A stretch of DNA of 39,435 nucleotides from assembly GCA_964562735.1 (NCBI GenBank), contig CAZLUK010000092.1:1-39435 (forward strand), written 5' to 3'. A program made the translations under genes and the position numbers. The notes beneath the pieces were generated by a model that worked only from the letters and a program-made list of their open reading frames with translations, did not search any database and was not told the origin of the DNA. Shown in pieces: positions 19,330 to 39,404 of this stretch. The stretch is from an uncultured Candidatus Peribacteria bacterium. GTDB lineage: Bacteria > Patescibacteriota > Gracilibacteria > Peribacterales > Peribacteraceae. Every line of letters starts with the position of its first letter. Positions within the stretch are counted from its first letter, which is position 1.

Positions 19330-19366
19330 ACGAAAAAATCGCAAGTATTTCAATGATGGCGGAGCC

Positions 19367-19445: not shown

Positions 19446-19709
19446 TCAACCATAGACCTTGTTATGGTTACCGACCATCAACAAGAGAACAATCGCATGT
19501 CCACGTTCTTCGGCATAGACAATGCGTAAATCATAACCTGCCGAGATCGATCGCAGACCTTGCTTGGACCCGAGCAACTTGTGGTTGCGTAACTGAGGAT
19601 GAAAAGGATTATTCGCAAAGAGTCGCAGTGCCAGATCGCTCAACTGCTGCTGCTCGGGTGAGAGCTTGCGATACATTCGTTTGAATGCAGAACTATAACG
19701 GAGTAGCAT
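19446..19709 (-). CDS. relE: type II toxin, RelE/StbE (ParE-superfamily) mRNA interferase
   Basis: 87 aa. ..FHPQLRNHKLLGSKQGLRSISAGYDLRIVYAEERGHAIVLLLMVGNHNKVYG is a typical RelE/StbE C-terminal core. Preceded by a DinJ/RelB-type gene with a 2-nt gap. Confidence 0.8.
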   Translation of the reverse strand: MLLRYSSAFKRMYRKLSPEQQQLSDLALRLFANNPFHPQLRNHKLLGSKQGLRSISAGYDLRIVYAEERGHAIVLLLMVGNHNKVYG

Positions 19710-19711
19710 GG

Positions 19712-20002
19712 CTATTGACGAAGATTGGTCAGGAGTTCGTCAACCGAAGAGAAGGTAGCAGAGACGTTCTTCCCTTTCTTTGCCTGGGCTGCCAACTGGT
19801 CCATTGCGGCGATCTGCTTGGGTGTATACGTATCGTCTTGGCTCTGGAGAAAGAAAGGAATGCCTCCGACATCCGCAACTTTTGTGAAGAAAATACGGAT
19901 CGCTGTGGGGGAATCGATGCCGATTTTACTGAAAATTCCTTCAGCCTTGCGTTTGAGCTTGTCATCGATCCGGATCTGAAGGTTCTTTTTCGCCATATGC
20001 AT
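19712..20002 (-). CDS. type II antitoxin, RelB/DinJ family
   Basis: MAKKNLQIRIDDKLKRKAEGIFSKIGIDSPTAIRIFFTKV is a DinJ-type RHH N-terminus. Start at ATG 20002 or 19996. Confidence 0.75.
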   Translation of the reverse strand: MHMAKKNLQIRIDDKLKRKAEGIFSKIGIDSPTAIRIFFTKVADVGGIPFFLQSQDDTYTPKQIAAMDQLAAQAKKGKNVSATFSSVDELLTNLRQ

Positions 20003-20057
20003 TATGCATGACTATTGTAGTCTTTTTGCATATATAAGGCAAGAGAATTGCGTTGAA

Positions 20058-20141
20058 TGGCGGAGCCAACGGGACTCGAACCCGCGACCTCTTCCGTGAC
20101 AGGGAAGCGCTCTAACCATCAGCCTAGGCTGATACGGCTCC
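20058..20141 (-). tRNA. tRNA-Asp(GTC)-like variant with a 7-nt-longer, palindromic D-arm region (function uncertain)
   Basis: RNA sense: GGAGCCGTA-TCAGCCTAGGCTGA-TGGTTAGAGCGCTTCCCTGTCACGGAAGAGGTCGCGGGTTCGAGTCCCGTTGGCTCCGCCA (84 nt). Identical to the canonical gene except that GCTCAGC of the D-arm is replaced by TCAGCCTAGGCTGA. Confidence 0.5.
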
Positions 20142-20168
20142 ACGAAAAAATCGCAAGTATTTCAATGA

Positions 20169-20181
20169 TGGCGGAGCCAAC
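20169..20181 (-). repeat. solo copy of the tRNA-Asp 3' terminus (TGGCGGAGCCAAC on the plus strand)
   Basis: A 13-nt direct repeat of the 3' end of the variant at 20278..20361. Together they bracket a 96-nt hairpin-rich insert (20182..20277). Confidence 0.7.
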
Positions 20182-20277
20182 CCCTCGACTCCTCCTCGGC
20201 TCGTTACACTCGCTCGGAGTCGCTCGGGGTTTCCGAGGTCGTTTTTGGAATAGGGAAGATTGGTGTTGTTTCAATTG

Positions 20278-20361
20278 TGGCGGAGCCAACGGGATTCGAA
20301 CCCGCGACCTCTTCCGTGACAGGGAAGCGCTCTAACCATCAGCCTAGGCTGATACGGCTCC
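20278..20361 (-). tRNA. tRNA-Asp(GTC)-like variant with palindromic D-arm region (function uncertain)
   Basis: Same 84-nt structure as 20058..20141, with one T-loop difference (TTCGAATCC). Separated from the canonical tRNA-Asp by the conserved 27-nt spacer. Confidence 0.5.
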
Positions 20362-20388
20362 ACGAAAAAATCGCAAGTATTTCAATGA

Positions 20389-20465
20389 TGGCGGAGCCAA
20401 CGGGACTCGAACCCGCGACCTCTTCCGTGACAGGGAAGCGCTCTAACCAGCTGAGCTACGGCTCC
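20389..20465 (-). tRNA. tRNA-Asp (anticodon GTC), CCA encoded
   Basis: GGAGCCGTAGCTCAGCTGGTTAGAGCGCTTCCCTGTCACGGAAGAGGTCGCGGGTTCGAGTCCCGTTGGCTCCGCCA. Canonical cloverleaf, anticodon loop CTGTCAC, discriminator G. Confidence 0.9.
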
Positions 20466-20549
20466 AGATATCTTCATTTTCTACGTGTCACTAAAACGGT
20501 GTCACAAAGGAGCAAATGCGGTAGCGGATTTTAGGCCAGCCCAACAAGT

Positions 20550-25931: not shown

Positions 25932-26265
25932 GCAGACGGGACGCGGCGTCCCGGGGGATAGGTATAAGTTTCCTCGTTCTCAAATTCATCACTAAAAACA
26001 TGGCACTTTCTCGGTAATTCGATTAGGAACCTCTGCGAAACTCCTTTGACCCGCAGCCGCGATTCCCGCCTTCGCCTCTGGGCTTCGGTAGGCAGGCGCA
26101 AATCGTGGTTCGGAGCCACTGGCCAGCGGTTTGCGAACCGCTGCTGCGAAATGAAGCGGTCTCCGAACCGCTGCTGCGGAATAAGGGGGATTTTTCAGGG
26201 ATTCCATTAGTTTGATTTTTTACAGGAATATCGGTTACTTTTGCGGGACGCGGCGTCCCGTCTGC
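25932..26265. mobile_element. MITE-like repeat, family 2 (copy carrying a nested family-1 element)
   Basis: 22-nt terminal inverted repeats GCAGACGGGACGCGGCGTCCCG (25932..25953) and CGGGACGCGGCGTCCCGTCTGC (26244..26265). The internal sequence is collinear with the copy at 34972..35163, apart from the insertion at 26022..26208. Confidence 0.55.
26022..26208. mobile_element. MITE-like repeat, family 1 (long copy, inverted relative to 11817..11942)
   Basis: The reverse complement of the 11817..11942 element aligns end to end. It carries two extra blocks: a 32-nt insertion (26066..26097) and a duplication of about 30 nt of the GCGGT..ACCGCTGCTGCG hairpin. Confidence 0.6.
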
Positions 26266-26332: not shown

Positions 26333-28573
26333 TCAGAGCAGCGGCTCTTCGAAATTTTCCGCGTCATCAATCTCATCTTTCTCCGGGGGCTTAGATGCCG
26401 CCTCATCCCACAGTTTCAGGAGCGTTTCGACCTCGGATTTCGGGGCGCAGTACTGTGATCTGGACCATTCGATGATCTCCTGCGTATGATCGTCCGTCGA
26501 CTGAGGTGCTTCCAATGTGAAGCCCGAGAAGGCTTCCCGCAGCTGTCCGTTGACTGACATTTTCGTATAAAACTCGCGCACACCTAGATTGATGATGTCG
26601 CGTTCCTTGAAAATGGGACTGTATTCGCCCGCCAGGATGACTGCGTCTTCCGCCCCGACGCGGAAGCTAACCATGGAACCCACGTTGCCAAAGACGGTCT
26701 TGCGGACCGTGTCGCTTAGTTGTCCCATGTACTGATGCGCGATTGTCAGGTTCAGGCGATATTTACGGGCTTCGGACAGGATTTCGGCGAATGTGTCGGT
26801 CGCGAAGTTCTGGAACTCATCGACGTACAGATAGAAGTCCGTGCGCTGGTCCTCCGGAACGTCGGCCCGGCTCATGGCGGCCTGGTATAACTTAGTAATA
26901 AACATTGCGCCGATCAGTGACGAGTTCTCTTCCCCCAGCAGCCCTTTGCTCACTTTCATGAGCAGGATTTTCTTGTTGTCCATGATGTCTCGGATATCAA
27001 ACTTAGTCACCGGCTGACCGACCATGTTGCGGATCATGTTGGTAGCCACAAATTGCCCGACTTTATTGAGCAGCGGCGTGATGGCATCGGCATCGAATTT
27101 TTCGCTCCAGGCGGCAAATTCCGAAACCCAGAAGCTTTTGACAACTGAGTCCTGGATTCGGGAAACAATCTTCTGACGGTAATTTTTGTCTGTCAGCATC
27201 TTAAGGATCGAGAGCACGGTCGTATTCGGACTGTCTAGAAGCGCTAGTACGGTGTACCTAAGCACGTGCTCCAATCGGTCGCTCCAGTTATTTCCGAACA
27301 GCTTCTTAAATATCTGCAGGAAACCGATCGTCACCTGCATCTTCTGGGCCTCATCCACTTTCTCGAGCGGATTGAACGCGATCGGGAAATCAACGTCGCC
27401 TGGATCCAGGAGTACAACGTCTTTGATTCGGTGCACGGGTATATAGCGCATGATGTTATCAATCAGGTCGCCGTGCGGATCAATCACCGCGATGCCTTCG
27501 CCTTTTTGCAAATCTTCGTTGATGAGTAATTCAAGCAGTTTGCTCTTGCCCGATCCGGACTTTCCAACTGTATAGAGGTGGCGCCGCCGGTCCGCACGGA
27601 GGATACCGAACGGGACGAAGTTATTGTGGTAGTTCGTGATGCCGAACGCACTGACGTCTGGTTCACTCTGTTTCGGCAGATCCTGCGGCGGATCAGACTT
27701 GCGGGCCAGCACGTGCACGATGTGCGGCACTTCATCGGCATTGGGCAGATGGTACAGGGTCGCTACTTCCTTGGCGCTCAATATGAATGGTGTCGTGTGC
27801 GTGCGAGCCCGGTATTGATCGACAAATTTCTGCATCGAGCCATGATAAATGTGCGAGTGGAACTCGTTGATATCTTTATCATTAAATTGAGAAAAGCTGC
27901 TCGCGAGTGCGGTCAATTTTCGTTCGGCCGATGCCGGATCAGTGCTGATGTACGCTACTCGGATACTCACCGTGAATGGCTTGATCTCAGCTTTCTCGTG
28001 GGCCAGCTGATGGCGGCGGGGCTGGATACTCTTGCGCCCGCCCGGACGCATGCGGTCGCGGATCGAGAAGAAGTGGATAAAATCGGCGATGTGTATCGCG
28101 ACGCGGCGGCGCAAGTGAAAGAACGCAGTGTCATCCTGCGGCTCGGCGATGATCTGCACCCACGCCTGGTCGCCGGTCGGAATTTTGGAGATCACGGAAA
28201 ACAGCCGTGTGGCACTGTCCTCCTCAAACATGTCGTAGGTTTTGATCGGATAAATATCGGAGTGGTGCAGGCTGATCGTTGCACCCGCGATGTCATCGTG
28301 TTCAGGATCGTAACTGAGTGTGTAGTCCTGAGCCTCTTTGATTTCGGCTTCCGGAAACGTGGCGTAGATCAACCCTTCCACTGTTTCGAGCAGTTGTTCC
28401 TGGACTGCTACAAAGAAGTATGTGTACTGCCCGACCCCATAGAACTCGAGCCCTACCCGCGTGCCCGTGAACGTGTTACGCAAGTTGATCAGCAGTTCAT
28501 GGAACTTGGATTCCGGTTTCTTCTGACCTTCCACGCCCTGCGGAACGATGATGTGGAGATGGCGGAGTTTCAT
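26333..28573 (-). CDS. VirD4/TraG/TraD-like (FtsK-HerA superfamily) P-loop ATPase with a long N-terminal domain of unknown function
   Basis: 746 aa. Walker A TVGKSGSGKSKLLELL, then AVIDPHGDL, and Walker B FYLYVDEFQNFATD, followed by LTIAHQYMGQL. The N-terminal ~300 aa has no recognisable motif. Confidence 0.75.
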   Translation of the reverse strand: MKLRHLHIIVPQGVEGQKKPESKFHELLINLRNTFTGTRVGLEFYGVGQYTYFFVAVQEQLLETVEGLIYATFPEAEIKEAQDYTLSYDPEHDDIAGATISLHHSDIYPIKTYDMFEEDSATRLFSVISKIPTGDQAWVQIIAEPQDDTAFFHLRRRVAIHIADFIHFFSIRDRMRPGGRKSIQPRRHQLAHEKAEIKPFTVSIRVAYISTDPASAERKLTALASSFSQFNDKDINEFHSHIYHGSMQKFVDQYRARTHTTPFILSAKEVATLYHLPNADEVPHIVHVLARKSDPPQDLPKQSEPDVSAFGITNYHNNFVPFGILRADRRRHLYTVGKSGSGKSKLLELLINEDLQKGEGIAVIDPHGDLIDNIMRYIPVHRIKDVVLLDPGDVDFPIAFNPLEKVDEAQKMQVTIGFLQIFKKLFGNNWSDRLEHVLRYTVLALLDSPNTTVLSILKMLTDKNYRQKIVSRIQDSVVKSFWVSEFAAWSEKFDADAITPLLNKVGQFVATNMIRNMVGQPVTKFDIRDIMDNKKILLMKVSKGLLGEENSSLIGAMFITKLYQAAMSRADVPEDQRTDFYLYVDEFQNFATDTFAEILSEARKYRLNLTIAHQYMGQLSDTVRKTVFGNVGSMVSFRVGAEDAVILAGEYSPIFKERDIINLGVREFYTKMSVNGQLREAFSGFTLEAPQSTDDHTQEIIEWSRSQYCAPKSEVETLLKLWDEAASKPPEKDEIDDAENFEEPLL

Positions 28574-28617
28574 TGAGAATATTATATAATATAATCAAAA
28601 AATATCAAATTACTGAT

Positions 28618-28671
28618 AATGCTTTCTAAGACTTTAGAATAGGCTTTTTCGGGAAAAGTGGGTACTGGAAA
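28618..28671. repeat. 54-nt direct repeat, copy 1 (upstream of the ATPase gene)
   Basis: AATGCTTTCTAAGACTTTAGAATAGGCTTTTTCGGGAAAAGTGGGTACTGGAAA. Matches 29703..29756 at about 47 of 54 positions. Confidence 0.75.
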
Positions 28672-28748: not shown

Positions 28749-29663
28749 TCAAGACATTTCCTTTTGGTTGAGCAAATAACTTGGGTAGTGCTCAAGAATA
28801 TTTGTAGCACATTGCATATGTGATAAAAATCGATTTGGGTTTCTTTTTTTTCTGAAAAGTCTACTTCGCTCCAGTAAGTCGAATTGGTGGTTCATCAAAC
28901 TTTTAAAACTCGTTTCTACTTCTGCATCACGGACACGTTGTGGCAGCAAATCCAAGCATGTGCTAAGTGCATCATTATACGGACAATATTCTTTGTACCA
29001 TTTCATCCTCTTGCGCTCGTTAAGAGGAGCTTCTCCTTTCTTATCACGTAGAGAACTACGGGCAGTCATTTCAAGACTATTTTCAGTTGCAGGTCGGTTG
29101 TTATCAGCCTCTGCTAGTTTACAACTTTCTTCCAAGGCATTCATTCCATACACAAGTTGAGTGAAACACGATTGCTGTGATCCTACTCGTATGTCCACTG
29201 ATCGTGGTAACTCGGCTGGATACAGGAATCCATCCTTCTGTTGTAGATTTGCAATGGTCTGAAGATACGCTCCGACCTTCTCCACAACGTGAAAATCCAA
29301 ATACGGAAATATAAAAGCCTGGCGCTCTCCTGCTGCGGTCTTGGTAAAATTCGCAAGAGTCGAAGCCTGATCCTTTGTTAGAGGAATGTCTAAACAGTTA
29401 CCCATCTCTTTCTTAAGATCATAGTGGAATTTTTTTACACCATGTTGAATCCTACGGGCAGTTCCATTTTCACCACTCAATATTTGGATTATTTTTCTAA
29501 CGCTGAAAAAACGTATGCCTTCAACATCAAGTTTACAGACATGTTCTACTGCATCCAGTAGATCCTGTACAGTAACGATTCTTTTTGAATGTACCTCTCT
29601 AATACTTTCGCCAGGGATCTGATAAGAGCTCGGAGAGAGACTATAGGGGTTATCTTCATCCAT
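28749..29663 (-). CDS. hypothetical protein encoded on an AT-rich insert
   Basis: 304-aa ORF. Base composition is visibly more AT-rich than the flanking genes. No recognisable domain. Flanked by the 54-nt direct repeats. Confidence 0.6.
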   Translation of the reverse strand: MDEDNPYSLSPSSYQIPGESIREVHSKRIVTVQDLLDAVEHVCKLDVEGIRFFSVRKIIQILSGENGTARRIQHGVKKFHYDLKKEMGNCLDIPLTKDQASTLANFTKTAAGERQAFIFPYLDFHVVEKVGAYLQTIANLQQKDGFLYPAELPRSVDIRVGSQQSCFTQLVYGMNALEESCKLAEADNNRPATENSLEMTARSSLRDKKGEAPLNERKRMKWYKEYCPYNDALSTCLDLLPQRVRDAEVETSFKSLMNHQFDLLERSRLFRKKRNPNRFLSHMQCATNILEHYPSYLLNQKEMS

Positions 29664-29669
29664 ACATTT

Positions 29670-29697
29670 ATTATAATATATGAACAGATTTTGTCAA
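29670..29697 (-). promoter_or_regulatory. near-consensus promoter TTGACA-16-TATAAT, with the -10 ending 6 nt before the ATG at 29663
   Basis: Minus strand: TTGACA (29697..29692), 16-nt spacer, TATAAT (29675..29670), then AAATGT and the ATG. No room for an SD. Confidence 0.45.
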
Positions 29698-29702
29698 TAA
29701 GA

Positions 29703-29756
29703 AATGCTTTCTAGGGCTTCAGGATAGGATTTTTTCGGAAAAGTGGGTACTGGAAA
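29703..29756. repeat. 54-nt direct repeat, copy 2 (upstream of the 304-aa gene)
   Basis: AATGCTTTCTAGGGCTTCAGGATAGGATTTTTTCGGAAAAGTGGGTACTGGAAA. See 28618..28671. Confidence 0.75.
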
Positions 29757-29771: not shown

Positions 29772-29870
29772 TCAATACACCGTCTCCAGATAGCACTTCT
29801 CGCCCTTCGATGCGCTGCGCTTACTCAGGGCGAATCGTGCCGACGGAGAAAAAATTGGTGATATAGATGT
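29772..29870 (-). repeat. R3 repeat, copy 1: about 100-nt unit made of a hairpin plus a remnant of a paralog 3' end (..GEKCYLETVY*)
   Basis: Near-identical to 31753..31851 and 35280..35378. The minus strand reads ..GCACGATTCGCCC-22 nt-GGGCGAGAAGTGCTATCTGGAGACGGTGTATTGA. Confidence 0.7.
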
Positions 29871-30056
29871 CTAACAAACAGTCTTCAGATAGCACGATTC
29901 GCCCATCCTTCGCTCCGCTTTTTCTAAACATTGATCCACGGGCGAAGCTTCGGAGGGCTTCGCTTTCGTTGGTGCAGCAGAAATTATCATGACTAGTATA
30001 CAGTTTCAAGATAGCAACGCTCGCAGTATACGATCTCCGGCCGGTCCGGAGCGCTT
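29871..30056 (-). pseudogene. two further orphan 3'-end remnants of the Cys-rich paralog family
   Basis: Minus strand 29903..29871 encodes GESCYLKTVC*. Minus strand 30056..29993 encodes ..ASAPDRPEIVYCERCYLETVY*, directly downstream of the stop of paralog A. No upstream coding body exists for either. Confidence 0.6.
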
Positions 30057-30072: not shown

Positions 30073-31749
30073 TTAGTAGACAATTGAGAGATAGCATTCT
30101 TCGCAGTACACAATTTCGGGGCGCGAAGGCTGGTACGTCGTTTGGATCGATTTATTGCACTTCAAACATTCTCTCTGCCAGAGCCTGCGCGGATTACGGA
30201 GCATCATCCGTTCTTTCTGCCGGCATTCGGGACAGCATCGAGGAATCGGCAGATGTTGGCGACGATAGAACGAAAGTTCTTGCGGTATGACTCGATAGTT
30301 TTTTCCGCAATTCCTGCATGCCAGCAGCTCTTTTGCAATATCGTCCTTCGTATCGGCGATCCTGTCACTGAGCACGGTTGTCTGTGGTTGATATTCGCGT
30401 ACGTCCTTCTCGCGCCACGTGAATTTTCTCGCTATTGCCTCTTCCCTCCTCAACGGGAAATATTCGGAGGCCAGACTTTCGTTGTACGCAAACGTCGCGA
30501 TTGCGGGAGGGAAAAAGAGCCCCCATTCGCTGGTTTTTTCCATGTGCTTGATGAGCTTGGGCACGAGAGCGTCATACTCTTCTTGCGAGTACTGTTTATT
30601 CAAGATGCAGTGCTTCTTTCGCGTGAGTCCAATACAGCCAAAACAGTCGCTACAGTGATAGCACGTGTCGCAGTACAGCATCCGTTGCGAGTAGAAGATG
30701 TACAGGCAGTACGCAACGTTGTATGCCTCGATGGTCCCGAGTGTGTCGTAACAGAGCTCGGGCTTCAGGTACATATTTGAGCAGTCGTAATTGTCTTTCA
30801 CGTTCACGCCGACCGTAACCCATCGGCAGTCTTGGCTCTCGTTGACGTCGTAACAGTCTAAACAGTTCTGAGAATTTTCGATGTAATCGCCAGTGCAGTT
30901 TTCAGAGTTCACGATGTTTGAGTACTTGTGAAGTTTCTTCAGGTTAAGATCCTTCAGGTGTTTCTTTCCGGCTTCCAGCGCGGCGTGTGACCCAAGAAGT
31001 TCCGTGACGCGCTTCGCATACTCTTCTTTCGTCAGTTGTTCGTTGAAGATGCAGTATTTCTTCCTCGAAAGATTAGTGCAGAGACAGCAGTTGGCGCAGG
31101 ACTGTAAGTTCGACGATAGCAAGCAGTCCTGGCAGTTCTGGCTGAAGGACAGAAACATGCAGTTATAGGAACCGTACACACTGAAGCACTCGTAGCAGAG
31201 CTCCGAGTCGTAGAGATAGCAGCAATCCATGGAATTCTTGCACTTCTGGAAGAGCTTTCCGTAGTAGCAATCTTCGGCGTACTCGGACGAGTTGATGAGG
31301 TAACAGTTTTTGCAGTAGCCGGTGCCGGTCGTGAAGTCCGAATTCTCATTGGCGACCGTGACCATGGCAACTCGCGGCACTTTTTTCTGAAGCATCGCAT
31401 ATTGTTCGAAGAAGCTACGTGCAAAGTCGATGTCCTGTCCGTACTGCAATGGATCGAAGGCATCGCTTCGCCATTCTTCCTGCGAGTATACCGAGTACGG
31501 CTCGCCCCATGGCGCGTCATCGTGATATAGAGCGACGATGTCCTTTCCCGATTTCGTCGATTTCCTGCGGTACATGCATTGTTCGTTGCGGTGGCAGGCG
31601 CGGATTTGCAGGCGGCAGTCCGGACAGTACACCGGACGCGGCGGGTGAAACGTCGCTATGCCGAACGTGAAACCTATTTTTTCAAGAAATGCCTCTTCAT
31701 CCGGATGGATGATGAAACCCTGATTGCAGCGTTTGCAGGAAGACTCCAT
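30073..31749 (-). CDS. cysteine-ladder / zinc-ribbon protein, paralog A
   Basis: 558 aa. N-terminal CKRC..CPDCRLQIR..RNEQCMYRRK. Two Cys-ladder halves, each ending ..KKYCIFNEQLTKEEY or ..KKHCILNKQYSQEEY. C-terminal FYRRQHLPIPRCCPECRQKERMMLRNPRRLWQRECLKC-x17-CEECYLSIVY. Confidence 0.8.
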   Translation of the reverse strand: MESSCKRCNQGFIIHPDEEAFLEKIGFTFGIATFHPPRPVYCPDCRLQIRACHRNEQCMYRRKSTKSGKDIVALYHDDAPWGEPYSVYSQEEWRSDAFDPLQYGQDIDFARSFFEQYAMLQKKVPRVAMVTVANENSDFTTGTGYCKNCYLINSSEYAEDCYYGKLFQKCKNSMDCCYLYDSELCYECFSVYGSYNCMFLSFSQNCQDCLLSSNLQSCANCCLCTNLSRKKYCIFNEQLTKEEYAKRVTELLGSHAALEAGKKHLKDLNLKKLHKYSNIVNSENCTGDYIENSQNCLDCYDVNESQDCRWVTVGVNVKDNYDCSNMYLKPELCYDTLGTIEAYNVAYCLYIFYSQRMLYCDTCYHCSDCFGCIGLTRKKHCILNKQYSQEEYDALVPKLIKHMEKTSEWGLFFPPAIATFAYNESLASEYFPLRREEAIARKFTWREKDVREYQPQTTVLSDRIADTKDDIAKELLACRNCGKNYRVIPQELSFYRRQHLPIPRCCPECRQKERMMLRNPRRLWQRECLKCNKSIQTTYQPSRPEIVYCEECYLSIVY

Positions 31750-31752
31750 AGG

Positions 31753-31851
31753 TTAGTACACTGCCTCCAGATAGCACTTCTCGCCCTTCGATGCGCTGCG
31801 CTTACTCAGGGCGAATCGTGCCGACGGAGAAAAAATTGGTGACATAGATGC
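31753..31851 (-). repeat. R3 repeat, copy 2 (fills the whole spacer between paralogs B and A)
   Basis: Hairpin arms GCACTTCTCGCCC (31774..31786) and GGGCGAATCGTGC (31809..31821) with a 22-nt loop. The remnant ..GEKCYLEAVY* ends 3 nt before the ATG of paralog A. Confidence 0.75.
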
Positions 31852-33564
31852 CTAATATATACTCTTCAGGTAGCACGATTCGCAATACACAATCTCCGGA
31901 CGTTCCGGAGCATAACTCGTTTGGATCTCTCGCTGACAGTTTTGACAAGTGCGTGTCCAGAGTCTGTAGGGAGTCCGCAGAGCCATGCGCCGCCGATGAC
32001 GCTCTTCTGGGTGCAATCGGGGGAGCGCAAGATGTTCGCGGCGATAGAAATCGAGTTCCTGTTTAATGATACGAAATGGCTTACCCGTCACTTCACAGAT
32101 GATCGCATAATCTAGTACGTCATCCTGCACCGCATCGATGATGGCGGGCAGATCGCTGCCCCGGATAGTTTTTGCAACCGTGGGAGGATCACCGGTCGTG
32201 GCTTTCCATTGCCAGCCCTTGGCGAGCACTTCTTCTTTGGTAAGCGGGAAGTGATCCTGAGCGAGCGTTTCGTTGTAGGCGAAAGGACTCATGGATACCG
32301 GAAAGAATTCACCCCACTCCTGCCCCGCGAAGCTGCCGTCAGGCAAGCGAAGTGGGGTCTTCTCCATGTGCTGGATGATCTTCGGCACGAGCTCGTTGTA
32401 TTCCTCCTCCGTGTACTGTTTGTTGAGAATACAATAGTGTTTGCTGGTGAGGCCGATGCACCCGAAACACTGCGTGCAGGAGCGAATGTTTTCACTGTAG
32501 TACACTTGTTCGCAAGTTGATGCGAAACTGTCGAACGCACAGCGTTGCGTAGTGCTGCCTGCTCCATGCATCTCATAGAGGATTTCCGCATTTTTCCCTG
32601 CGGAGCTGCAATCCATCATGTCTTTGCTTTTCCACCCGCACATTTGGCAGTGCCGACAATCTTCCGCGCCAAGTTGCACGAAGTAACAATCGATGCAATT
32701 TCGCGCTTGTTCGATGTAATTCCCCGAACAGTGTTCCGACTGGGTGATGCGTGCGCAGAGCGTGGGGAGTGTCACTTTCCAACGATCAAAAAATATTTTC
32801 TCTGTCGCAAACCTGCCATCAAACAATGCTTGACGCTTTGCTTCGAATTCCTCGCGGGAGACGGGTTTGTTATAGATGTGATATTCCTTCTCGCGTAAAT
32901 TCTTACAGCCGATGCAGTTGTGGCAATTACGACAGTCATCGAGGAGGATCGAATCCTGGCAGTTGCTGCAATCGTGACAGGAGAAACAGTGGTAGCAGTT
33001 GTTGCAGCCGACGCATTCGTACAACAGTTCTCCCTGCACGCAGCAAAGACAATCCATACAATTCTTGCCCATCATCCACGAGCTGTAGTAGACGTCTTGG
33101 CAGAGAAAACACGAGAATGCGAGGTAGCAGTTTTTGTTGTTCATGCCGAACGCGGTATAATCACTGTTTTCAGCGAGTCCATCTTGGTGCATGCCTCTGC
33201 GAGGTACTTTTTGCATCAGCGCTGCAAATTGGTCGAAGAATGTCTTCGTGAAATCCATATCGATCCCGTACTGCATCGGATCCCATGCATCGCTCGCCCA
33301 CGCAGATTCGGAGTAAACTACAAAGGGCTTGTCCTCAGAATATAAAGAGACCATCGGCTTGCCAGTCAGCGCACAGGTACGGCGGTAGAGATTTCGCTCG
33401 TTACGTAGTCCAAACCGTCGCTGGCATCGACAGGACGGACAGTGGGTTGGTGGAGGCAAAGGAAAACTTTTTCCATTGATGACCGGAGCAAGTTTATCCA
33501 ACAATTGGAGATCGTCTTCCATGAGCGTAAAGGCCAAGCTGCAACTAACGCAATGCTTCTGCAT
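31852..33564 (-). CDS. cysteine-ladder / zinc-ribbon protein, paralog B
   Basis: Same architecture as A. Start set at MQKHCVSCS (33564) by analogy with the A, C and D N-termini; the ORF extends to 33621, where it would overlap the divergent MFS gene. The C-terminus is ..LPRLHPEERHRRRMALRTPYRLWTRTCQNC-x17-CESCYLKSIY. Confidence 0.8.
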   Translation of the reverse strand: MQKHCVSCSLAFTLMEDDLQLLDKLAPVINGKSFPLPPPTHCPSCRCQRRFGLRNERNLYRRTCALTGKPMVSLYSEDKPFVVYSESAWASDAWDPMQYGIDMDFTKTFFDQFAALMQKVPRRGMHQDGLAENSDYTAFGMNNKNCYLAFSCFLCQDVYYSSWMMGKNCMDCLCCVQGELLYECVGCNNCYHCFSCHDCSNCQDSILLDDCRNCHNCIGCKNLREKEYHIYNKPVSREEFEAKRQALFDGRFATEKIFFDRWKVTLPTLCARITQSEHCSGNYIEQARNCIDCYFVQLGAEDCRHCQMCGWKSKDMMDCSSAGKNAEILYEMHGAGSTTQRCAFDSFASTCEQVYYSENIRSCTQCFGCIGLTSKHYCILNKQYTEEEYNELVPKIIQHMEKTPLRLPDGSFAGQEWGEFFPVSMSPFAYNETLAQDHFPLTKEEVLAKGWQWKATTGDPPTVAKTIRGSDLPAIIDAVQDDVLDYAIICEVTGKPFRIIKQELDFYRREHLALPRLHPEERHRRRMALRTPYRLWTRTCQNCQREIQTSYAPERPEIVYCESCYLKSIY

Positions 33565-33611
33565 GAGGATATATTCTATCCCCATTTCCGGATCGAAGGT
33601 ACTATTATCGC

Positions 33612-34892
33612 ATGCATTCAAAGCGAAAGGATCTGTGGCTGTGGGCTTCCTATGACTTCGCCAATTCGATCGCGCTCATCAGTCTCTCGTTTTATTTCGG
33701 ACTATGGTTCATTTCAGAGCAGCACGCATCCGATGTCTGGATCAGTACGTCGGTTGCGGTATCGACGGTTGCCATGCTCTTTACGTTGCCGGTCCTTGGT
33801 AAAATGTCCGATCGCGCCGGGAAGCGCATGCCGTTTCTGATCGGGTGCTCGCTCCTCTGCATCGCGTCACTCATCGCACTCGGCCTCTTTACGGGGAGAG
33901 TGGAGCATCTCACGTTTATGTCCACCATGATCATTTTTGTCCTCTATTCCGCATTCAATTTTTTCTACAATTCCTGTTTCGCCTTCTACGATGCGTTTCT
34001 GAAAGAACTAACACAGAATGCACACTCACTCGAACGCACATCGGGGTTCGGCAACGGGATGGGGCAAGTAGGGAATGTTGTAGCGTTGCTCATTGCCATT
34101 CCTCTCGCGCAGGGGAGCATTTCCATTCTCGGTTTCAGCGGGAAGCCGCTGATTTTCATTGTCGCCGGTGTACTGTTTCTCCTCTTCGCGTTGCCGACTT
34201 TTCTTTTTCTAAAAGATAAGCCGCATGCGGCGGAACCGGTAAAATTGGGACGCAGCTTACGTGAAACCCTTCACGATCTGTGGCATATCCGGGAATATCC
34301 GGGGGTGCTGTCGTATCTCATCACGTATTGTCTCTTTGCCGACGCACTCCTCACGCTACAGCTGTTCGCTTCCTCGTATTTGGAGACCGTTGGGCACATG
34401 CCCGATACGCAGAAAAACATCACATTCATGCTTGCGGTTGGTACGGGAATCATCGGATCCTTCACCAGTCCGCTCTTCGTTCGGCTCTTCGGTTCCCGCA
34501 AGCGCGCGATCTCGGCCTTCATCGCGATGTGGACGGTGGTGCTCGCGCTCGTCGCTGTGGCAACTGTACCGTGGCTCTTCATGGTACTGATTATCTTGAA
34601 CGGCTTCGCATTCGGAGCGCTTTTTTCTCTTTCGCGCGCATTCTTTGCCGCTCTCGTCCCCGCAGACAAACAATCAGAGATGTTCGGCATCTATGCGCTC
34701 TTTGGGCGTACCGCATCCGTCTTCGGTCCACTCCTCTGGAGCGCGACAGCGCTCGCCTTCGCATCGTTCGGCGAAGATCGTTACCGGTTTTCCATCGTCG
34801 CGCTGGCAGTCCTCGTTCTTATCAGCTGGTTCACCATGCAACGAGTGAAAGAACCGCTGCATGCCAAGAGCTCTTCATCGTCATTGGTGTGA
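33612..34892 (+). CDS. MFS transporter (UMF1/Atg22-like family)
   Basis: 426 aa with about 12 hydrophobic segments. N-terminal signature WLWASYDFANSIALISLSFYFGLWF. Confidence 0.85.
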   Translation: MHSKRKDLWLWASYDFANSIALISLSFYFGLWFISEQHASDVWISTSVAVSTVAMLFTLPVLGKMSDRAGKRMPFLIGCSLLCIASLIALGLFTGRVEHLTFMSTMIIFVLYSAFNFFYNSCFAFYDAFLKELTQNAHSLERTSGFGNGMGQVGNVVALLIAIPLAQGSISILGFSGKPLIFIVAGVLFLLFALPTFLFLKDKPHAAEPVKLGRSLRETLHDLWHIREYPGVLSYLITYCLFADALLTLQLFASSYLETVGHMPDTQKNITFMLAVGTGIIGSFTSPLFVRLFGSRKRAISAFIAMWTVVLALVAVATVPWLFMVLIILNGFAFGALFSLSRAFFAALVPADKQSEMFGIYALFGRTASVFGPLLWSATALAFASFGEDRYRFSIVALAVLVLISWFTMQRVKEPLHAKSSSSSLV

Positions 34893-34971
34893 AATGGATC
34901 ATACGATTCTTGACTGGAGAAAAGAGCCATCAAGGTTTCCCGCAGCCACGGCGGTCGTGACCGCCCGTGGC

Positions 34972-35163
34972 GCAGACGGGACGCCGCGTCCCGAGGAAGA
35001 AGAATCATACGTTTCTTCGCTCTCACATTTATCACTACAAGCATGGCATTTTCGCTATCAATGTCCTGCTATTTTTGTTCACCAGCCGCTTAAATCGTTG
35101 GTTAACAAACGGCGAATCTTGCGCAGAATTGGTTACTGTTGCGGGACGCGGCGTCCCGTCTGC
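34972..35163. mobile_element. MITE-like repeat, family 2 (copy without nested element)
   Basis: Terminal inverted repeats GCAGACGGGACGCCGCGTCCCG (34972..34993) and CGGGACGCGGCGTCCCGTCTGC (35142..35163). The interior is collinear with 25954..26021 and 26209..26243. Confidence 0.55.
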
Positions 35164-35279
35164 GGGGAGAGAAGAAGAAGCGGGGCATGAAAAATATGAT
35201 GTGCGTTTTCAATCCATCAAAGTTTCTCCAACCAAGAATCGTATGATCCCCTCTTGCCAGCCGAAACGTCTAGGCCGAA

Positions 35280-35378
35280 TTAGTACACTGCCTCCAGATA
35301 GCACTTCTCGCCCTTCGATGCGCTGCGCTTACTCAGGGCGAATCGTGCCGACGGAGAAAAAATTGGTGACATAGATGT
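35280..35378 (-). repeat. R3 repeat, copy 3 (directly downstream of the paralog C remnant)
   Basis: Near-identical to 31753..31851, including the hairpin and the ..GEKCYLEAVY* remnant. Confidence 0.75.
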
Positions 35379-36614
35379 CTAATAGACAGTCTTCAGATAG
35401 CACGATTCGCAGTACACAATCTCTCTTCGAGAGCCTGTCATTCGAGACCCTGAGGGGTCCTCAGACCCTCGAAGGGAGGGCTCCTCAGAGCCTCGAACGG
35501 CAGAACGCTCAGGGCTGTACGTCGTCCGAATCGGTTTGCGGCATTTCCCGCATTCTCGGTCCCAGATTTTTGGAGGATTATGCATGCGGAAACGGTCTCT
35601 ATGCCGTTCGGTTGGATGACTAGATTCTCTTTTGAATCCGGACACCCTAATGAATTTGCTACACTCTTTTAATGAAAAACATCTCACAAGTTCTCACATC
35701 TTTCCAAAAGTGTACGTCATGGCAGCCATTCAGATAGTCGCCGCTGCAATCCTCACAGTTTACTAATTGCATTCCCCGACGGGGTAGACTCGCCATGGCT
35801 GCCCGAAAACGAATTTTCATCTCTTCTATGTAGGCGTAGGATCCAGTATCGAATACTAGCGACGTTTTCGATACTCTTCCTCCGAGAGCCCTTCATTGAA
35901 CCAGTGAAACCGTTTCTGACGCAGGCCATAGCATCCGATGCAATCAGAACAACCCTTAAGATCGTAACCGAAGATGCAATTATTACAGCTTTCAGAGTTC
36001 TGCAAATAGCGGCAATTGTAGAGTCTGCGGGAATCAAGGCATTCATAACAGAGTTCACTATCACCCATAAAATAACAGTCAACCAGGTATTTGCTATGTG
36101 TGCAGGGAGCTGCGCAGTAGTAACAATTCTCGACGAACCATGAGCCGCAGGTCATAAAGCAGTTCTTTCCGAAGGAAAAATCCGTCGTATATTCACAATT
36201 CTCACTATTGACTCCGTTGTCGTTCATCATCGCCAGATGTGGCACACGGTGATTGACCTCAAAAAACTGTTCGAGAAACGGTCGGCTCAGATCCACTGCC
36301 TGTCCATACGCGAATGGATCCCACTCTCCCCACCAACAACTGTGGCAGTACACCGGAAACGGCGCATCTTTGGCGTACAGTGCGATAATTTTCTTATTGC
36401 AACGAGCGCACGAACGCCCATACAAAGATCGTTCGTTGCGCCATGCGCTGCGCCGCTGCATGCGGCACATCGGACAGTGAATGGGCGCAGGAATCAGATA
36501 TTTCTTTCCGCCGAAGACCGGCGAGACTTTATCGTAAAACGTCAGATCGTTGCTCGTGACATCGAAGCTTTGCTTGCACCAGCCGTTTGCGCAGGTTTTC
36601 TGCATGCGCTTCAT
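35379..36614 (-). pseudogene. cysteine-ladder / zinc-ribbon protein, paralog C (decayed)
   Basis: The N-terminal 252 codons are intact (35856..36614) and include a complete CARC-x17-CHSC ribbon. 35688..35858 contains several in-frame stops plus a frameshifted CEDCSGDYLNGCHDV fragment. The C-terminal ~100 codons (35379..35687) are in the original frame. About 200 codons are missing relative to A, B and D. Confidence 0.7.
35424..35501 (-). repeat. 78-nt in-frame quasi-palindromic insertion in the C-terminal zinc ribbon (paralog C copy)
   Basis: Encodes SAVRGSEEPSLRGSEDPSGSRMTGSR between ..PER and REIVYCESC. Nested inverted repeats TTCGAG..CTGAGG..CCTCAG..CTCGAA and a 24-nt tandem repeat. Confidence 0.6.
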
Positions 36615-36615
36615 G

Positions 36616-36927
36616 CTACACCGAAATACCGTGCGCCTTCACCTCCTCGGCAAGTGTGAAATACTTGTTTTTCAGATCTTCTTCATGGAGACAGACCGTT
36701 TCAATCCGTCGGCTCAGCGGACGGCGTAATTTTCGGAGTGTCGTGTTCTCATCATGCACGGAAGGCAGGAAAGGCTTCACGATGACGGCGATATCGATGT
36801 CACTGTCCTCGGTTGAGTTGTCCGCTGCCATGGAGCCGAAGAGACGGACATCAATGACGGGAATGCCCGCTTCTAGGAGGATTTTTTTATAGGCAATGGC
36901 CACTGCGAGAGCTTGAAAGCGATTCAT
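36616..36927 (-). CDS. nucleotidyltransferase-domain protein (MNT-type antitoxin partner of HEPN)
   Basis: LFGSMAADNSTEDSDIDIAVIV is a pol-beta-superfamily NTase motif. The ATG overlaps the HEPN stop (ATGA). The stop lies 1 nt before the ATG of paralog C. Confidence 0.8.
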   Translation of the reverse strand: MNRFQALAVAIAYKKILLEAGIPVIDVRLFGSMAADNSTEDSDIDIAVIVKPFLPSVHDENTTLRKLRRPLSRRIETVCLHEEDLKNKYFTLAEEVKAHGISV

Positions 36928-37313
36928 AGGTGGAGGGCTTGGTCCAGTTTTTTGAAAAGGAGATCGGTATTTTTGAGCCACGCAGCAACATTTTCTTTTG
37001 TCGCCTTTTCTTCATGCCAGCGTTGATCTTCATAGCGAGCTGCTGTGCTGTAGCCGCTCAAGTCATCAAGGAGATCTTCTTCCTGCTCACTCCAATGTGA
37101 CGATAGTTGTTCTGCAAGAGCGGAGAGGTCATGTGTTGGAGGCGGATTTTTGTCTTTTTCAAGGATGAAGACTGCTTTCAGAGCCTTTTCTACCGCAAGG
37201 TGGCAATGGAAAAGTGCGAGTGCGTACTTGCCGTTTTTCGCGAGTAACCTGGCGGCATCGAGTGCATCATGTGCTCCTCTATGCCAGTGCTTGATTATCT
37301 CCGCTTGCAACAT
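36924..37313 (-). CDS. HEPN-domain protein (toxin partner of MNT)
   Basis: 129 aa. ..ALALFHCHLAVEKALKAVFI.. and ..YSTAARYED.. are typical of small HEPN proteins paired with minimal nucleotidyltransferases. Confidence 0.8.
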   Translation of the reverse strand: MLQAEIIKHWHRGAHDALDAARLLAKNGKYALALFHCHLAVEKALKAVFILEKDKNPPPTHDLSALAEQLSSHWSEQEEDLLDDLSGYSTAARYEDQRWHEEKATKENVAAWLKNTDLLFKKLDQALHL

Positions 37314-37318
37314 GACTT

Positions 37319-37345
37319 TTAGTATACCGCAGATAGAGCGAGAAG
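37319..37345 (-). repeat. degenerate paralog 3'-end remnant (R3-like, hairpin arm deleted) 5 nt upstream of the HEPN start
   Basis: The minus strand reads ..GCTCTATCTGCGGTATACTAA, then AAGTC, then ATG. Compare TGCTATCTAGAAACTGTATACTAA at the end of paralog D. Confidence 0.45.
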
Positions 37346-37517
37346 CGGAAATTTTTACGGAGCCTTAGAATCATTCCCCACCTTTTGTACGTGAACTGTT
37401 GGCTCCCTGGAACATGATGAAGCTTGTGTCATGAGACCAATCGACTAAGTAAAATTTTCCGAGGGAGAACGATGATGCGATCAGAGAATCAAATATAGGA
37501 ATGATGGATATGGATAG

Positions 37518-39242
37518 TTAGTATACAGTTTCTAGATAGCACGATTCGCAGTACACGATCTCTCTTCGAGAGCCTGTCATTCGAGACCCTGAGGGGTCCT
37601 CAGACCCTCGAAGGGATGGGTCCTCAGAGCCTCGAACGGCCGGACGGTCCGGAGCATAGGTTGTTTCGATTGCCGTTTCGCACTTCGTGCATGTTCTCGC
37701 ATACAGTTTCAGCGGATTGCGAAGTGCAAGACGCTTCGCATATCGCTGGTCGGGATGGAGGCGGGGTACGGGTAGCCGTAAAGATCGATAAAAATCGAGT
37801 TCCTGTTTAAGAATTTTAAAAGACCGCTTCGTTTCTTCGCATTCGATCGCCCAGTTCACGATGTCGTACGGAATATCGTCGATAGCGTCGGGTAATTGGA
37901 CTGCTAAAATTGTCTTGGTGACTTCCATTGGCGGTTCTGTGTGCTCAAACCATGCGAATCCTTCCGCTGCTGCCTGTTCTTTCGTCAGTGGAAAGTACGA
38001 GAGCGCAGTGCTTTCGTTATACGCGAACGGCGAACACACTTGCGGCAAAAATCTGCCCCATTCCCCCGTCTTTTTCATATGTGTAGCGAGCTGCGATCGC
38101 AGCTTTACGTATTCCTCTTTCTCATATTGCTTATTGAGGATGCAGTACTGCATTTTTTTAGCCCCGACGCAGCCGAATATATTTTTCGAGTGAAACGCCA
38201 TGTCGCAGTACTCAATGTCCGATGAGTCGAAGACGGAACAGGAATGACGGGCGTTGTAGGTACCTACTGCCGACTGCAGGTCATAGCACAGTTCGCCGGT
38301 GATGCACCCGGACAACAGGCTGTCCTTGGCCTGGCTAGCCAGGATCACATCTGACAAATCTTCGCTTTCCCAGGTGTCGAAACAGTTATGACATCCCTTG
38401 GATCCCTGAATGTAATCTCCCGTACAGTCCTCGGAGGAAAGAATATGTGCGAACTTCACGATGCGATGACTGCGGAGTTCAAGAAATTCTTTCCAGTTCT
38501 TTTGCTGCTGATGATAGGAACCGGAGAGCAGTTCTTGCTTCTGTTTCTCATATTCTTCCTTCGTGAGCTGCTTACTGCGAATGCAGTATGATTTTTTCAC
38601 GAGATTCGTACCGAGAATACAGTCACTACAGCCGATACAATCACTGATGAAGGCGCAGCTGCTACAATTCTGCGAATCGAAACCGAATGACGTGTCGTAG
38701 CAGTGATACGAATCTCCCAGAAAGTAGCAGCGTTCGTTGTGATTGCTGGTGTCCGAGTCTGAAATATTCTTGTTGTGCATGCCGAACGTGCCGTACATGC
38801 AGTCTTCATTGAAATCTCCGCCGAAGATCAAATAACAATTCCGGTTTCCCTGCGTCATATTGCAGTAATCCGAGTTTTCGGCCTTGATGTTCGTGAGCGC
38901 GAGCCGCGGAACTTTGAGCTGGAGTTCGCAGAGTTGCTCGAAGAACGGCCGGTTCCAATCGATATCGCGCCCATACGAGAGCGGGTCCCACTTGTCGCTC
39001 CACCAGACATCGGCTTTGTACACGGTGTACGGTTTTTCCGGAGCATAGATGGAAATGATCGGATCGCCCGTGAAATCACACTTCCTGCGATACAAATTTC
39101 GGCCGTTTCGGAAAAGAAGCCGCCGCTTGTGTCCACACGGAACGCAGTATGATGGCTCCGGCTCATCTGGAAATTTTTTCAGCAGTTCTATAGCCTTCGC
39201 GGAGAGCGAAAAGTGTTGATTGCAGGCAGCACAGGTGGACAT
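37518..39242 (-). CDS. cysteine-ladder / zinc-ribbon protein, paralog D (carries the 78-nt in-frame insertion)
   Basis: Same architecture as A and B. Start set at MSTCAACNQHF (39242) by analogy; the ORF opens at TTG 39356. The C-terminus is ..RTCTKC..APDRP[AVRGSEDPSLRGSEDPSGSRMTGSRR]EIVYCESCYLETVY. Confidence 0.8.
   Translation of the reverse strand: MSTCAACNQHFSLSAKAIELLKKFPDEPEPSYCVPCGHKRRLLFRNGRNLYRRKCDFTGDPIISIYAPEKPYTVYKADVWWSDKWDPLSYGRDIDWNRPFFEQLCELQLKVPRLALTNIKAENSDYCNMTQGNRNCYLIFGGDFNEDCMYGTFGMHNKNISDSDTSNHNERCYFLGDSYHCYDTSFGFDSQNCSSCAFISDCIGCSDCILGTNLVKKSYCIRSKQLTKEEYEKQKQELLSGSYHQQQKNWKEFLELRSHRIVKFAHILSSEDCTGDYIQGSKGCHNCFDTWESEDLSDVILASQAKDSLLSGCITGELCYDLQSAVGTYNARHSCSVFDSSDIEYCDMAFHSKNIFGCVGAKKMQYCILNKQYEKEEYVKLRSQLATHMKKTGEWGRFLPQVCSPFAYNESTALSYFPLTKEQAAAEGFAWFEHTEPPMEVTKTILAVQLPDAIDDIPYDIVNWAIECEETKRSFKILKQELDFYRSLRLPVPRLHPDQRYAKRLALRNPLKLYARTCTKCETAIETTYAPDRPAVRGSEDPSLRGSEDPSGSRMTGSRREIVYCESCYLETVY
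37563..37640 (-). repeat. 78-nt in-frame quasi-palindromic insertion in the C-terminal zinc ribbon (paralog D copy)
   Basis: 26 extra codons relative to A and B, at the same position as in paralog C. Hairpin-forming TTCGAG-ggt-CTGAGG-acc-CCTCAG-ggt-CTCGAA. Confidence 0.6.
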
Positions 39243-39404
39243 TGAACTTAGTCTATCATCTCTAAGGTAACAATTTTCACCCGCCCCTCCATCGTCAATT
39301 GCGTGAAATACAGGATCACATGATTCCTTGGTGGATAAAGTTTTTCCAATACACAATCAGATGACCTACATTGCTGCGTATTGGAACGCTCTCCCCCAGC
39401 CCGC

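Follow-up and report, generated by a model that had tools for sequence, protein, structure and literature searches.

In Bartonella, the bep effectors are encoded in an array next to virD4 (virD4-bepA-G), as tandem paralogs with a shared positively charged C-terminus beside an ATPase of the VirD4 family. In the HerA/FtsK partner systems (HerA-NurA, SIR2-HerA, DUF4297-HerA), the gene for a soluble hexameric-type ATPase stands beside that of a non-ATPase partner, a nuclease or NADase, with one such gene per system. Among Patescibacteria, the candidate phyla radiation (CPR), a survey published in 2025 counted 5,713 VirD4 homologues, only 148 of which lay near virB4, and suggested exaptation for other functions; the type IV secretion systems (T4SS) of these bacteria lack relaxases, and no substrates had been identified (PMC12102498). 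At a smaller scale, literature members of the zinc-finger families TIGR04272 and PF23477 are stand-alone proteins of <70 amino acids (aa), and the CxxC-x17-CxxC domain of small proteins of M. mazei binds zinc as measured by inductively coupled plasma mass spectrometry (PMC12704099). In this study, we explored a locus that recalls each of these systems in part. The window, by which we mean the whole stretch analysed (39,435 nucleotides (nt), contig CAZLUK010000092.1 of an uncultured Candidatus Peribacteria bacterium), carries four co-oriented paralogs, A to D, of a Cys-rich protein of about 560 aa with two internal cysteine ladders, and beyond them, on the same strand, the gene of a soluble VirB4/VirD4-type ATPase. 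We tentatively suggest that such paralogs form a panel of recognition proteins, stabilised by zinc, that would serve this ATPase as clients or adaptors.

The pairing of the two genes emerged when arrays were mapped with a family hidden Markov model (HMM) on fetched loci under translation table 11. Family genes occur in tandem arrays of 1 to at least 10 copies (at least 10 within 21.7 kb in locus L004, at least 7 in L001), and summing the loci of the same assemblies gives a lower bound of 5-11 copies per genome. Consecutive family genes often overlap by 1 nt in L001, which supports co-transcription within arrays. Two neighbours recur: a TrmB-family regulator of ~260 aa, usually divergent, before arrays or sub-arrays (five TrmB genes are interspersed in a single array of L017), and an ATPase of ~746 aa directly after the last family gene, the typical layout being a divergent TrmB gene, then n family genes, then the ATPase. 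A co-oriented family gene ends <1.2 kb upstream in 20 of the 26 ATPase genes with visible upstream DNA, across gaps mostly of 4-116 nt; two further cases of adjacency are L093 (12-nt gap by called genes) and the window, where an open reading frame (ORF) here named p304 intervenes. As the 26 loci had been fetched via the family, sampling from the ATPase side was added, and the same layout was present in five of six homologues 70-78% identical to the window ATPase. A preliminary description of this DNA had spoken of expansion and of an accessory-gene neighbourhood with a VirD4-like ATPase and HEPN-MNT genes. The expansion is borne out among the relatives surveyed by tandem arrays and recurrent TrmB and ATPase neighbours; both accessory elements are present, but "accessory" understates the ATPase, a partner that recurs and often lies directly beside the arrays. 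In seven loci (L033, L047, L059, L062, L070, L071 and L077) copies were not countable on the table-11 map; their family genes appear chopped into many short ORFs, as would fit genomes of the Gracilibacteria type in which UGA is a sense codon (code 25).

The family is large and confined almost to one corner of the bacterial tree. A word-indexed protein search gave at least 4,928 matches among the 8,000 candidates scored, all unnamed or "hypothetical", and an exhaustive profile search of 1.84 billion representatives of 50%-identity clusters gave 5,997 matches at E<=1e-3 and at least 2,471 at E<=1e-30; the 150 matches listed are full-length (530-600 aa), bar a few truncated entries. Species-representative genomes contain at least 587 copies, nearly all in metagenome-assembled genomes labelled Peregrinibacteria, Peribacteria, Gracilibacteria or Abawacabacteria, a few oddly labelled genomes carrying the family as well, and the closest relatives of B come from Peribacteria-labelled assemblies. 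A lone full-length member (39% identity; L083, 10001-11644) lies in a 3.26-Mb contig of a Bdellovibrionota genome, thus in a predatory bacterium outside the CPR, in a patch of ~52% GC between flanks of ~58% GC and in an otherwise uninformative neighbourhood with no ATPase or TrmB gene nearby; it is a probable case of horizontal transfer.

Scans of A-D against curated families (Pfam, NCBIfam, PADLOC, PHROGs) returned only a sub-threshold terminal zinc finger and a weak match to phrog_15341, which has no assigned function and whose same region is matched by the ladders of A and B (E 1e-3 and 6.5e-6). No PADLOC defence model matched A, B or D, a sequence-profile search of the PDB gave just LIM-like fingers (E 0.006), and the best Foldseek hit of a B model in the PDB had an E of 2.6. 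The whole protein had been described as matching no characterised family, and these searches agree; no full-length match to a characterised family was found, and the relatives are not all relics. An origin in phages or mobile elements was rejected, tblastn against GenBank phages and PLSDB plasmids giving no matches and IMG/VR a single one, a fragment at a contig end. We also rejected identity with the "cysteine-rich proteins" of the Peribacter genome paper, which are large and secreted, several being pappalysin-like or Myxococcus-repeat-like. The family is not mentioned in the papers searched on CPR protein families, patescibacterial T4SS and Gracilibacteria metaproteomics. Of the whole protein, only the terminal finger is covered by a curated family, a named protein, a paper searched or a solved fold.

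The protein begins and ends with a duplicated module of ~90 aa, composed of a zinc ribbon, an arginine-rich helix and a second zinc ribbon; the N- and C-terminal modules align with an hhalign probability of 99.7% (E 1.6e-26), against 1% for an unrelated control pair. For column statistics, 466 near-full-length non-redundant members were aligned to the family HMM. In these, C5, C8, C42 and C45 are conserved at 91-98% and C529, C532, C550 and C553 at 97-100%, while two "optional" sites form a complete Cys4 in ~21% and ~25% of members, with Cys gained or lost as units (phi coefficients of 0.95-1.0 for columns 67/85/88 and 482/510). This all-or-none behaviour explains why ligand loss differs by copy in the window, where C keeps the optional N-terminal site and A the optional C-terminal one. 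The copies had indeed been described in this way, with an N-terminal CxxC-x17-CxxC (the second of that module) complete only in C (CARC-x17-CHSC) and with CCPECR kept in A where B, C and D have HP(E/T/D)(E/Q)R(H/Y). At the first site of the C-terminal module, A alone among the window copies thus has all four Cys (CRNC...CCPEC). Likeness to TIGR04272, PF23477 (zf_Tbcl_2) and PF13451 (zf_Tbcl) lies in the last ~35 residues of A and B, which have the exact spacing (CLKC-x17-CEEC and CQNC-x17-CESC, respectively). Yet these models cover ~6% of the ladder protein, and the window copies stay under the curated cut-offs: A and B score 19.3 and 19.4 bits with PF23477 (cut-off 27), A scores 14.7 with TIGR04272 (cut-off 36), and D matches neither. 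Among 50 relatives, 37 match PF23477 at E<=0.01 (best E 2.2e-8), so that the termini are of the zinc-ribbon/treble-clef type, as had been proposed, although unlike the stand-alone fingers of the literature each is here half of a duplicated module within a 560-aa protein. In their conservation, the terminal Cys4 sites resemble genuine metal-binding sites, and the bound metal would presumably be zinc.

Between the end modules lie two ladders that are duplicates of each other (hhalign probability 99.85%, E 1.1e-30). In ladder 1, the autocorrelation of Cys is 0.71, 0.53, 0.58 and 0.62 at lags 3, 6, 9 and 12, and one phase of a period-3 lattice accounts for 11 of 11 Cys in D and 14 of 18 in B (permutation p<=1e-4 in A, B and D). 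Both ladders are built from a 12-residue rung, [C/S]-x-N-[C/S]-(E/K)-(N/D)-C-(Y/F)-x-[C/S]-x-(D/N), with lattice positions at i, i+3, i+6 and i+9 and with position 5 alternating E, K, E, K, E over successive rungs. As stacked equivalent positions with alternating charge are a solenoid signature, we read each ladder as a coil: probably ~9 rungs of 12 residues per turn in a solenoid fold, with four inward Cys/Ser positions in each turn. Each coil would be capped by an N…(K)xYCIxN motif, which is invariant. The AlphaFold2 model of B, computed from a 50-sequence alignment, has a mean predicted local distance difference test score (pLDDT) of 84.8 and a predicted TM-score of 0.85; in the ladders (residues 130-232 and 270-365) the pLDDT is ~70, and the model places isolated single beta-bridges every ~12 residues. 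To our knowledge, the only other 12-residue Cys-lined helix is that of the insect antifreeze protein TmAFP, which shares the 12-residue repeat and the fixed-lattice Cys lining a very narrow core. In the ladders, however, there are four lattice positions per rung, often occupied by Ser, and in cytoplasmic, zinc-finger-capped proteins disulfides are not expected, unlike in TmAFP. Homology to TmAFP was rejected (hhalign probability 4.5%; no PDB match by Foldseek or HMM). For structural biology and protein design, coils of 12 residues with Cys/Ser on a period-3 lattice would represent a novel type of solenoid.

With Cys making up 5.6-7.9% of residues, these could instead be stand-alone metalloproteins, with ladder Cys holding a series of metals or Fe-S clusters for storage or electron transfer and with an unrelated ATPase next door. 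CxxCxxC is a spacing reminiscent of motifs that bind clusters, Cys occupies each of the four lattice positions in the final rungs of ladder 1 (columns 212/215/218/221 at 82-94%, 200/203 at 65-79%), and in relatives, the organisms being anaerobic fermenters, genes of ferredoxin and PFOR are found nearby. Nonetheless, ladder Cys are conserved at anything from 10 to 94%, mostly at 10-70%, and are replaced chiefly by Ser, also by Leu and Val; they vary almost independently (phi <=0.36, mainly at separations 3, 9, 12 and 24) in contrast to phi ~1 at the terminal sites. Ladder runs read CxxCxxCxxC without Pro, with no CxxCxxCxxxCP motif and no match to the Fer4 family of Pfam in 50 members, and ladder surfaces that are paralog-specific yet conserved between orthologs are unexpected for a storage protein. 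We regard this alternative as distinctly improbable. Discrete metal sites in the ladders, sought from Cys co-occurrence, were likewise rejected, the correlations being weak; just the last one or two rungs of ladder 1 look, from their columns, like candidate extra metal sites.

After the ladders comes a conserved aromatic core motif (CILNKQY…WGEFFP…(SP)FAYNET). The strength of its conservation, together with invariant polar residues (including N381, N420, E492, R511, D172 and Q112), might point to enzymes, for example ones modifying related macromolecular substrates with one paralog per substrate, and Arg-rich zinc-ribbon modules are typical of nucleic-acid-binding enzymes. But most invariant residues are of a structural kind (Pro, Gly, aromatic, Asn and Cys); they include no obvious catalytic His/Ser/Lys set, and no similarity to catalytic domains is found in Pfam, NCBIfam or the PDB. 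An enzymatic role therefore seems very unlikely.

How the paralogs have evolved bears on what the ladders may do. Across 211 genes, the best paralog within the same locus has a median identity of 43% (maximum 57%), while for 92% of them the closest relative is in another locus, at a median identity of 58%. Thus, the paralogs are ancient and their coding regions are not in concerted evolution, and a recent lineage-specific expansion is rejected on the same figures. Between B and its 79% ortholog, the proportion of nonsynonymous differences (pN) is 0.12 against a saturated synonymous proportion (pS) of 0.73, so the ratio of the corresponding rates (dN/dS) is well below 1, indicating purifying selection. 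The ladders are the most constrained parts between these orthologs (pN 0.05 and 0.09, versus 0.12-0.20 elsewhere), and yet their identity is 37% and 27% among paralogs versus 70% and 61% in ortholog-like pairs. Expressed as the ratio of paralog to ortholog identity, the ladders stand at 0.53 and 0.44, the inter-ladder helix at 0.55 and the other scored regions, from which the C-terminal module was left out, at 0.73-0.93. The CILNKQY core is about equally conserved in the two comparisons (60% among paralogs, 65% in ortholog-like pairs), paralog identity being 60% in the segment of this core plus helix and 42% in the WGEFFP-FAYNET segment. Ladders constrained in orthologs but diverged among paralogs are the pattern expected for a paralog-specific ladder function on a common scaffold, and that function would plausibly be recognition. 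Signs of birth and death accompany this constraint: pseudogene C and relic 3' ends after A in the window, internally deleted copies in L015 and L027, and strain-level differences between loci L085 and L086.

The window ATPase (26333..28573, minus strand; 746 aa) is a soluble P-loop protein with the Walker A motif GKSGSGKS and the Walker B motif DEFQNF. Like coupling proteins of the VirD4/TrwB type, it passes the Pfam gathering scores (34.3 versus 20.1 bits for T4SS-DNA_transf, 24.2 versus 20.5 for TrwB_AAD_bind), and sequence models put it in the VirD4/TraD group, related just distantly to the curated TraD, VirD4 and CedD models. Unlike them, it has no N-terminal transmembrane anchor (maximum 19-residue hydropathy 1.26), and its N-terminal domain of ~320 aa (DUF8128 in relatives) is modelled as soluble alpha/beta. 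With the AlphaFold model (pLDDT 75.6), the best full-length structural matches are TrwK/VirB4 (E 8e-12, low TM-score), while TrwB (Foldseek E 4e-9), HerA (E 3e-8 to 1e-3), DotL and Cag-beta are matched as well. Across the clade the ATPase is 68-92% identical, far above the identity among family paralogs. Its link to a Cys-rich family is not mentioned in the patescibacterial survey (PMC12102498) or the other literature searched. It also matches phrog_5156, to which no function is assigned (E 3e-67). The homologue gp156 of Bacillus phage G was rejected as a phage counterpart of the pairing; it adjoins the VirB4-like gp155 and not a family member. In L045, a second, longer ATPase paralog of the type IV coupling protein (T4CP) kind (833 aa) lies a few kb from the array-linked one (3968-6469, minus strand, and 11654-13909, plus strand).

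Given an ATPase of the T4CP family abutting the arrays, the paralogs might be translocated cargo, effectors or adhesins of a patescibacterial T4SS, recruited by the ATPase via their Arg-rich C-terminal module, exported unfolded and folding, locked by metal or disulfides, outside the cell or in a host. All copies share conserved Arg/Lys-rich last ~60 residues ending …CYLxxVY, none has a Sec signal, the clade is thought to be host-dependent, and the T4SS of Patescibacteria has neither relaxases nor identified substrates while most of its VirD4 homologues lie away from virB4 (PMC12102498). The Bartonella arrangement, with which this idea invites comparison, differs in several respects: here the ATPase is soluble, has the N-terminal domain described above and is as VirB4-like as it is TrwB-like, no BID-type domain is present, and the paralogs are conserved over their full length and slowly evolving. 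Among the annotated genes around the arrays, in the window and the scanned loci, none was recognised as VirB4, VirB6, VirB8 or another channel component, which also speaks against export, as does an ATPase devoid of a membrane anchor. The slow pace of the orthologs is close to that of the ATPase (79% versus 83% in the same genome pair), with low dN/dS and with the putative surface-exposed ladders most constrained, unlike typical effectors, and the strictly conserved Cys4 sites imply cytoplasmic folding. Moreover, in the one patescibacterium tested, a t4cp homologue was dispensable for epibiotic growth (PMC12102498). All considered, cargo is an unlikely explanation, if one made attractive by the Bartonella analogy.

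The preliminary description had favoured a fast-evolving family, possibly engaged in conflict or in interaction with hosts, and defence or conflict effectors or sensors built on a HerA/VirD4-like ATPase have to be weighed. Toxin-antitoxin modules lie within the arrays, turnover is evident from pseudogenes and relics, and the ATPase weakly matches the PADLOC models of mad8 and HerA and structurally resembles the HerA of SIR2-HerA and DUF4297-HerA complexes. The partners in the HerA systems, however, are catalytic and encoded by a single gene, whereas here there are 1-10 tandem, non-catalytic-looking Cys-rich solenoid paralogs, in which neither Pfam and NCBIfam scans nor the invariant residues reveal an effector domain, be it a nuclease, an NADase or another. 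The family, matched by none of the PADLOC models, is absent from GenBank phages and PLSDB and is chromosomal and apparently vertical within one class. "Fast-evolving" finds no support in old paralogs that are under strong purifying selection (dN/dS well below 1) and lie beside an ATPase conserved at 68-92%, and a conflict-related role is scarcely probable; a role in interaction with hosts is conceivable.

The explanation that we prefer, though with less than even confidence, is the panel of recognition proteins named at the outset. A, B and D, and formerly C, would be cytoplasmic, metal-stabilised binding proteins of a CPR-specific family, in which the end modules and the core would provide the shared scaffold and docking part and the solenoid surfaces the part recognising a paralog-specific target. 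The paralogs would then be coupled, physically or functionally, to the neighbouring ATPase, a soluble hexameric enzyme of the VirB4/VirD4 type, as its clients or adaptors, and the interspersed TrmB-type regulators may switch subsets of them. Several observations weigh against this proposal. The ATPase is not adjacent to the family in L089, and L034, L045 and L048 are arranged otherwise; each genome has several arrays, only one of which adjoins an ATPase. ATPase-proximal paralogs show a median identity of 39%, equal to background, and form no dedicated orthologous group, for which reason a dedicated ATPase-proximal paralog was rejected. In the window itself, the ATPase has its own near-consensus promoter and is cut off from A by an inserted gene, and the Bdellovibrionota singleton lives without an ATPase nearby. 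The pLDDT of the modelled ladders is only ~70, and ladder Cys could bind metals or clusters instead. A bolder version, which we consider doubtful, sees in the zinc-finger-capped double solenoid, which would be a fold class not recognised before, the orphan soluble ATPase and TrmB a new machine found class-wide in Gracilibacteria/Peregrinibacteria, with differentially expressed paralogs that would each recognise a different conserved target and would themselves be handled by the ATPase, as exported T4SS substrates or adaptors; to a motor of the DNA-translocase type, the solenoids, acidic and square, might even look like nucleic acid.

Patescibacteria make up a large share of bacterial diversity with genomes of ~1 Mb, and in members of this class these arrays take up at least 1-1.5% of that genome. 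A family of thousands of sequence clusters, of which the terminal finger alone has been modelled, is a good lead to CPR biology. The pairing with the ATPase also bears on the open question of the thousands of "orphan" coupling-protein homologues encoded far from virB4; if the link is functional, it offers concrete candidates for study.

The four window copies, together with the ORFs and five shared motifs attributed to them, were found as described when aligned, all on the minus strand and 37-42% identical to one another. Paralog A (30073..31749, 558 aa), the copy nearest the ATPase, is intact and canonical; its best ortholog (62% identity) is in L060, where it is likewise the last gene before the ATPase. 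Paralog B (31852..33564, 570 aa), also intact and canonical, is the sequence modelled with AlphaFold, and its orthologs of 79% and 69% identity are each paired with a divergent gene of the major facilitator superfamily (MFS). Paralog D (37518..39242, 574 aa) has an intact ORF but a divergent sequence. The full ORFs of B and D extend over 31852..33621 and 37518..39356; the internal ATGs at 33564 and 39242 were chosen because the resulting N-termini fit the family consensus MxKxCxxC. D looks relaxed: it has the fewest Cys (5.6%), departs from three columns conserved at >=94% (R46G, N233S and D319L) and carries a 26-aa insert. Copy C, already described as decayed, survives as an N-terminal piece (35856..36614, minus strand; family HMM positions 1-244) and a C-terminal one (35379..35687, minus strand; positions 493-559). 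In the mere ~170 nt between them, the beginning of ladder 2 can still be traced out of frame (EDCSGDY), and ~250 residues, ladder 2 plus the core, are missing; this large deletion inside the gene makes C a pseudogene. No transmembrane segment or signal peptide is found in these proteins, as had been stated, the maximum Kyte-Doolittle values over 19 residues being 0.85-1.25.

A repeat has invaded two of these copies, C and D, again in line with the preliminary description. D carries an in-frame palindromic insert of 78 nt between its two CxxC pairs (AVRGSEDPSLRGSEDPSGSRMTGSRR; 37563..37640, minus strand), and the same insert lies in pseudogene C (35424..35501, minus strand); both are hairpin-forming and share an identical 34-nt core, and that of D has a predicted RNA fold of -39.4 kcal/mol (z -2.5). 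The insert adds 26 aa inside the C-terminal zinc finger, bringing the CxxC spacing to x43, and among window copies it splits the finger of C and D only; a search of 93 other loci found none. Relics of at least three 3' ends of family genes (…EIVYCERCYLETVY, …ESCYLKTVC and …EKCYLETVY, each followed by a stop) lie downstream of A (29772..30037, minus strand). The spacer of ~100 nt between B and A (31753..31851, minus strand) carries a relic gene end, GEKCYLE(A/T)VY with its stop, and shares 96-100% identity with 35280..35378 and 86% with 29772..29871. It belongs to a 144-nt unit present three times (29772-29915, 31753-31896 and 35280-35423), which consists of the last 15 codons of a family gene plus the ~100-nt spacer holding an older relic gene end, with a DNA identity of 86-100% versus ~40% for the coding paralogs. 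Near-identical spacers after B, after C and in the relic downstream of A point to recombination at the highly conserved 3' terminus; the unit is a place where recombination is frequent or else an element conserved at the RNA or DNA level.

On the minus strand, the order of genes is D, HEPN/MNT, C, B, A, p304 and the ATPase, the MFS gene lying on the plus strand between C and B. This gene, for an ATG22-like MFS transporter (33612..34892), is divergent from B, a pairing that the orthologs of B retain; in L001 there is an overlap between the MFS gene and the first gene of the family. The 304-aa ORF p304 (28749..29663, minus strand), without assigned function, sits between A and the ATPase, and no counterpart was found in any other locus mapped. 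The 54 nt upstream of p304 duplicate those upstream of the ATPase (29670-29756 and 28581-28671, minus strand), and beside each copy is a near-perfect sigma-70-type site, TTGA(C/T)A-16-TATAAT, ending 6-7 nt before the ATG, a distance that suggests leaderless transcripts. Duplication and promoter sites suggest a recent insertion of p304 into the junction between A and the ATPase, and a near-consensus promoter directly before the ATPase would allow the latter to be transcribed alone in the window.

A HEPN/MNT toxin-antitoxin pair (36616..37313, minus strand) is nested in the array, with HEPN at 36924..37313 and the MNT nucleotidyltransferase, which matches PADLOC PDC-S09, at 36616..36981. Such genes recur between family genes of different genomes (the window, L001, L039 and L085; HEPN-MNT, PIN, NYN and HicAB), L039 having an insertion of the HEPN/MNT kind like the window and other arrays the PIN, NYN and HicAB ones; the arrays appear to be permissive landing sites for toxin-antitoxin pairs.

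Elsewhere, the window has the genes of an ordinary chromosome (AspRS, ComM-like, PyrF, RecJ, PGM and glycogen phosphorylase). On the plus strand it encodes an SLH-domain protein (10120-11790) and a protein with DUF4215, the Myxococcus cysteine-rich repeat, in whose gene 76 nt are tandemly duplicated (15087-16733), both of a kind discussed in the Peribacter genome paper and unrelated to the ladder family. A direct repeat of 124 nt occurs four times (62-99% identity) in apparently non-coding DNA upstream of the gene for glycogen phosphorylase (19246-20512). Three overlapping inverted-repeat pairs with arms of 40-49 nt, 82-98% complementary and 14 kb apart (11831-11940 and 26024-26194), bracket the segment from ~11.9 to 26.0 kb and could be copies resembling miniature inverted-repeat transposable elements or the boundaries of an invertible or mobile segment.

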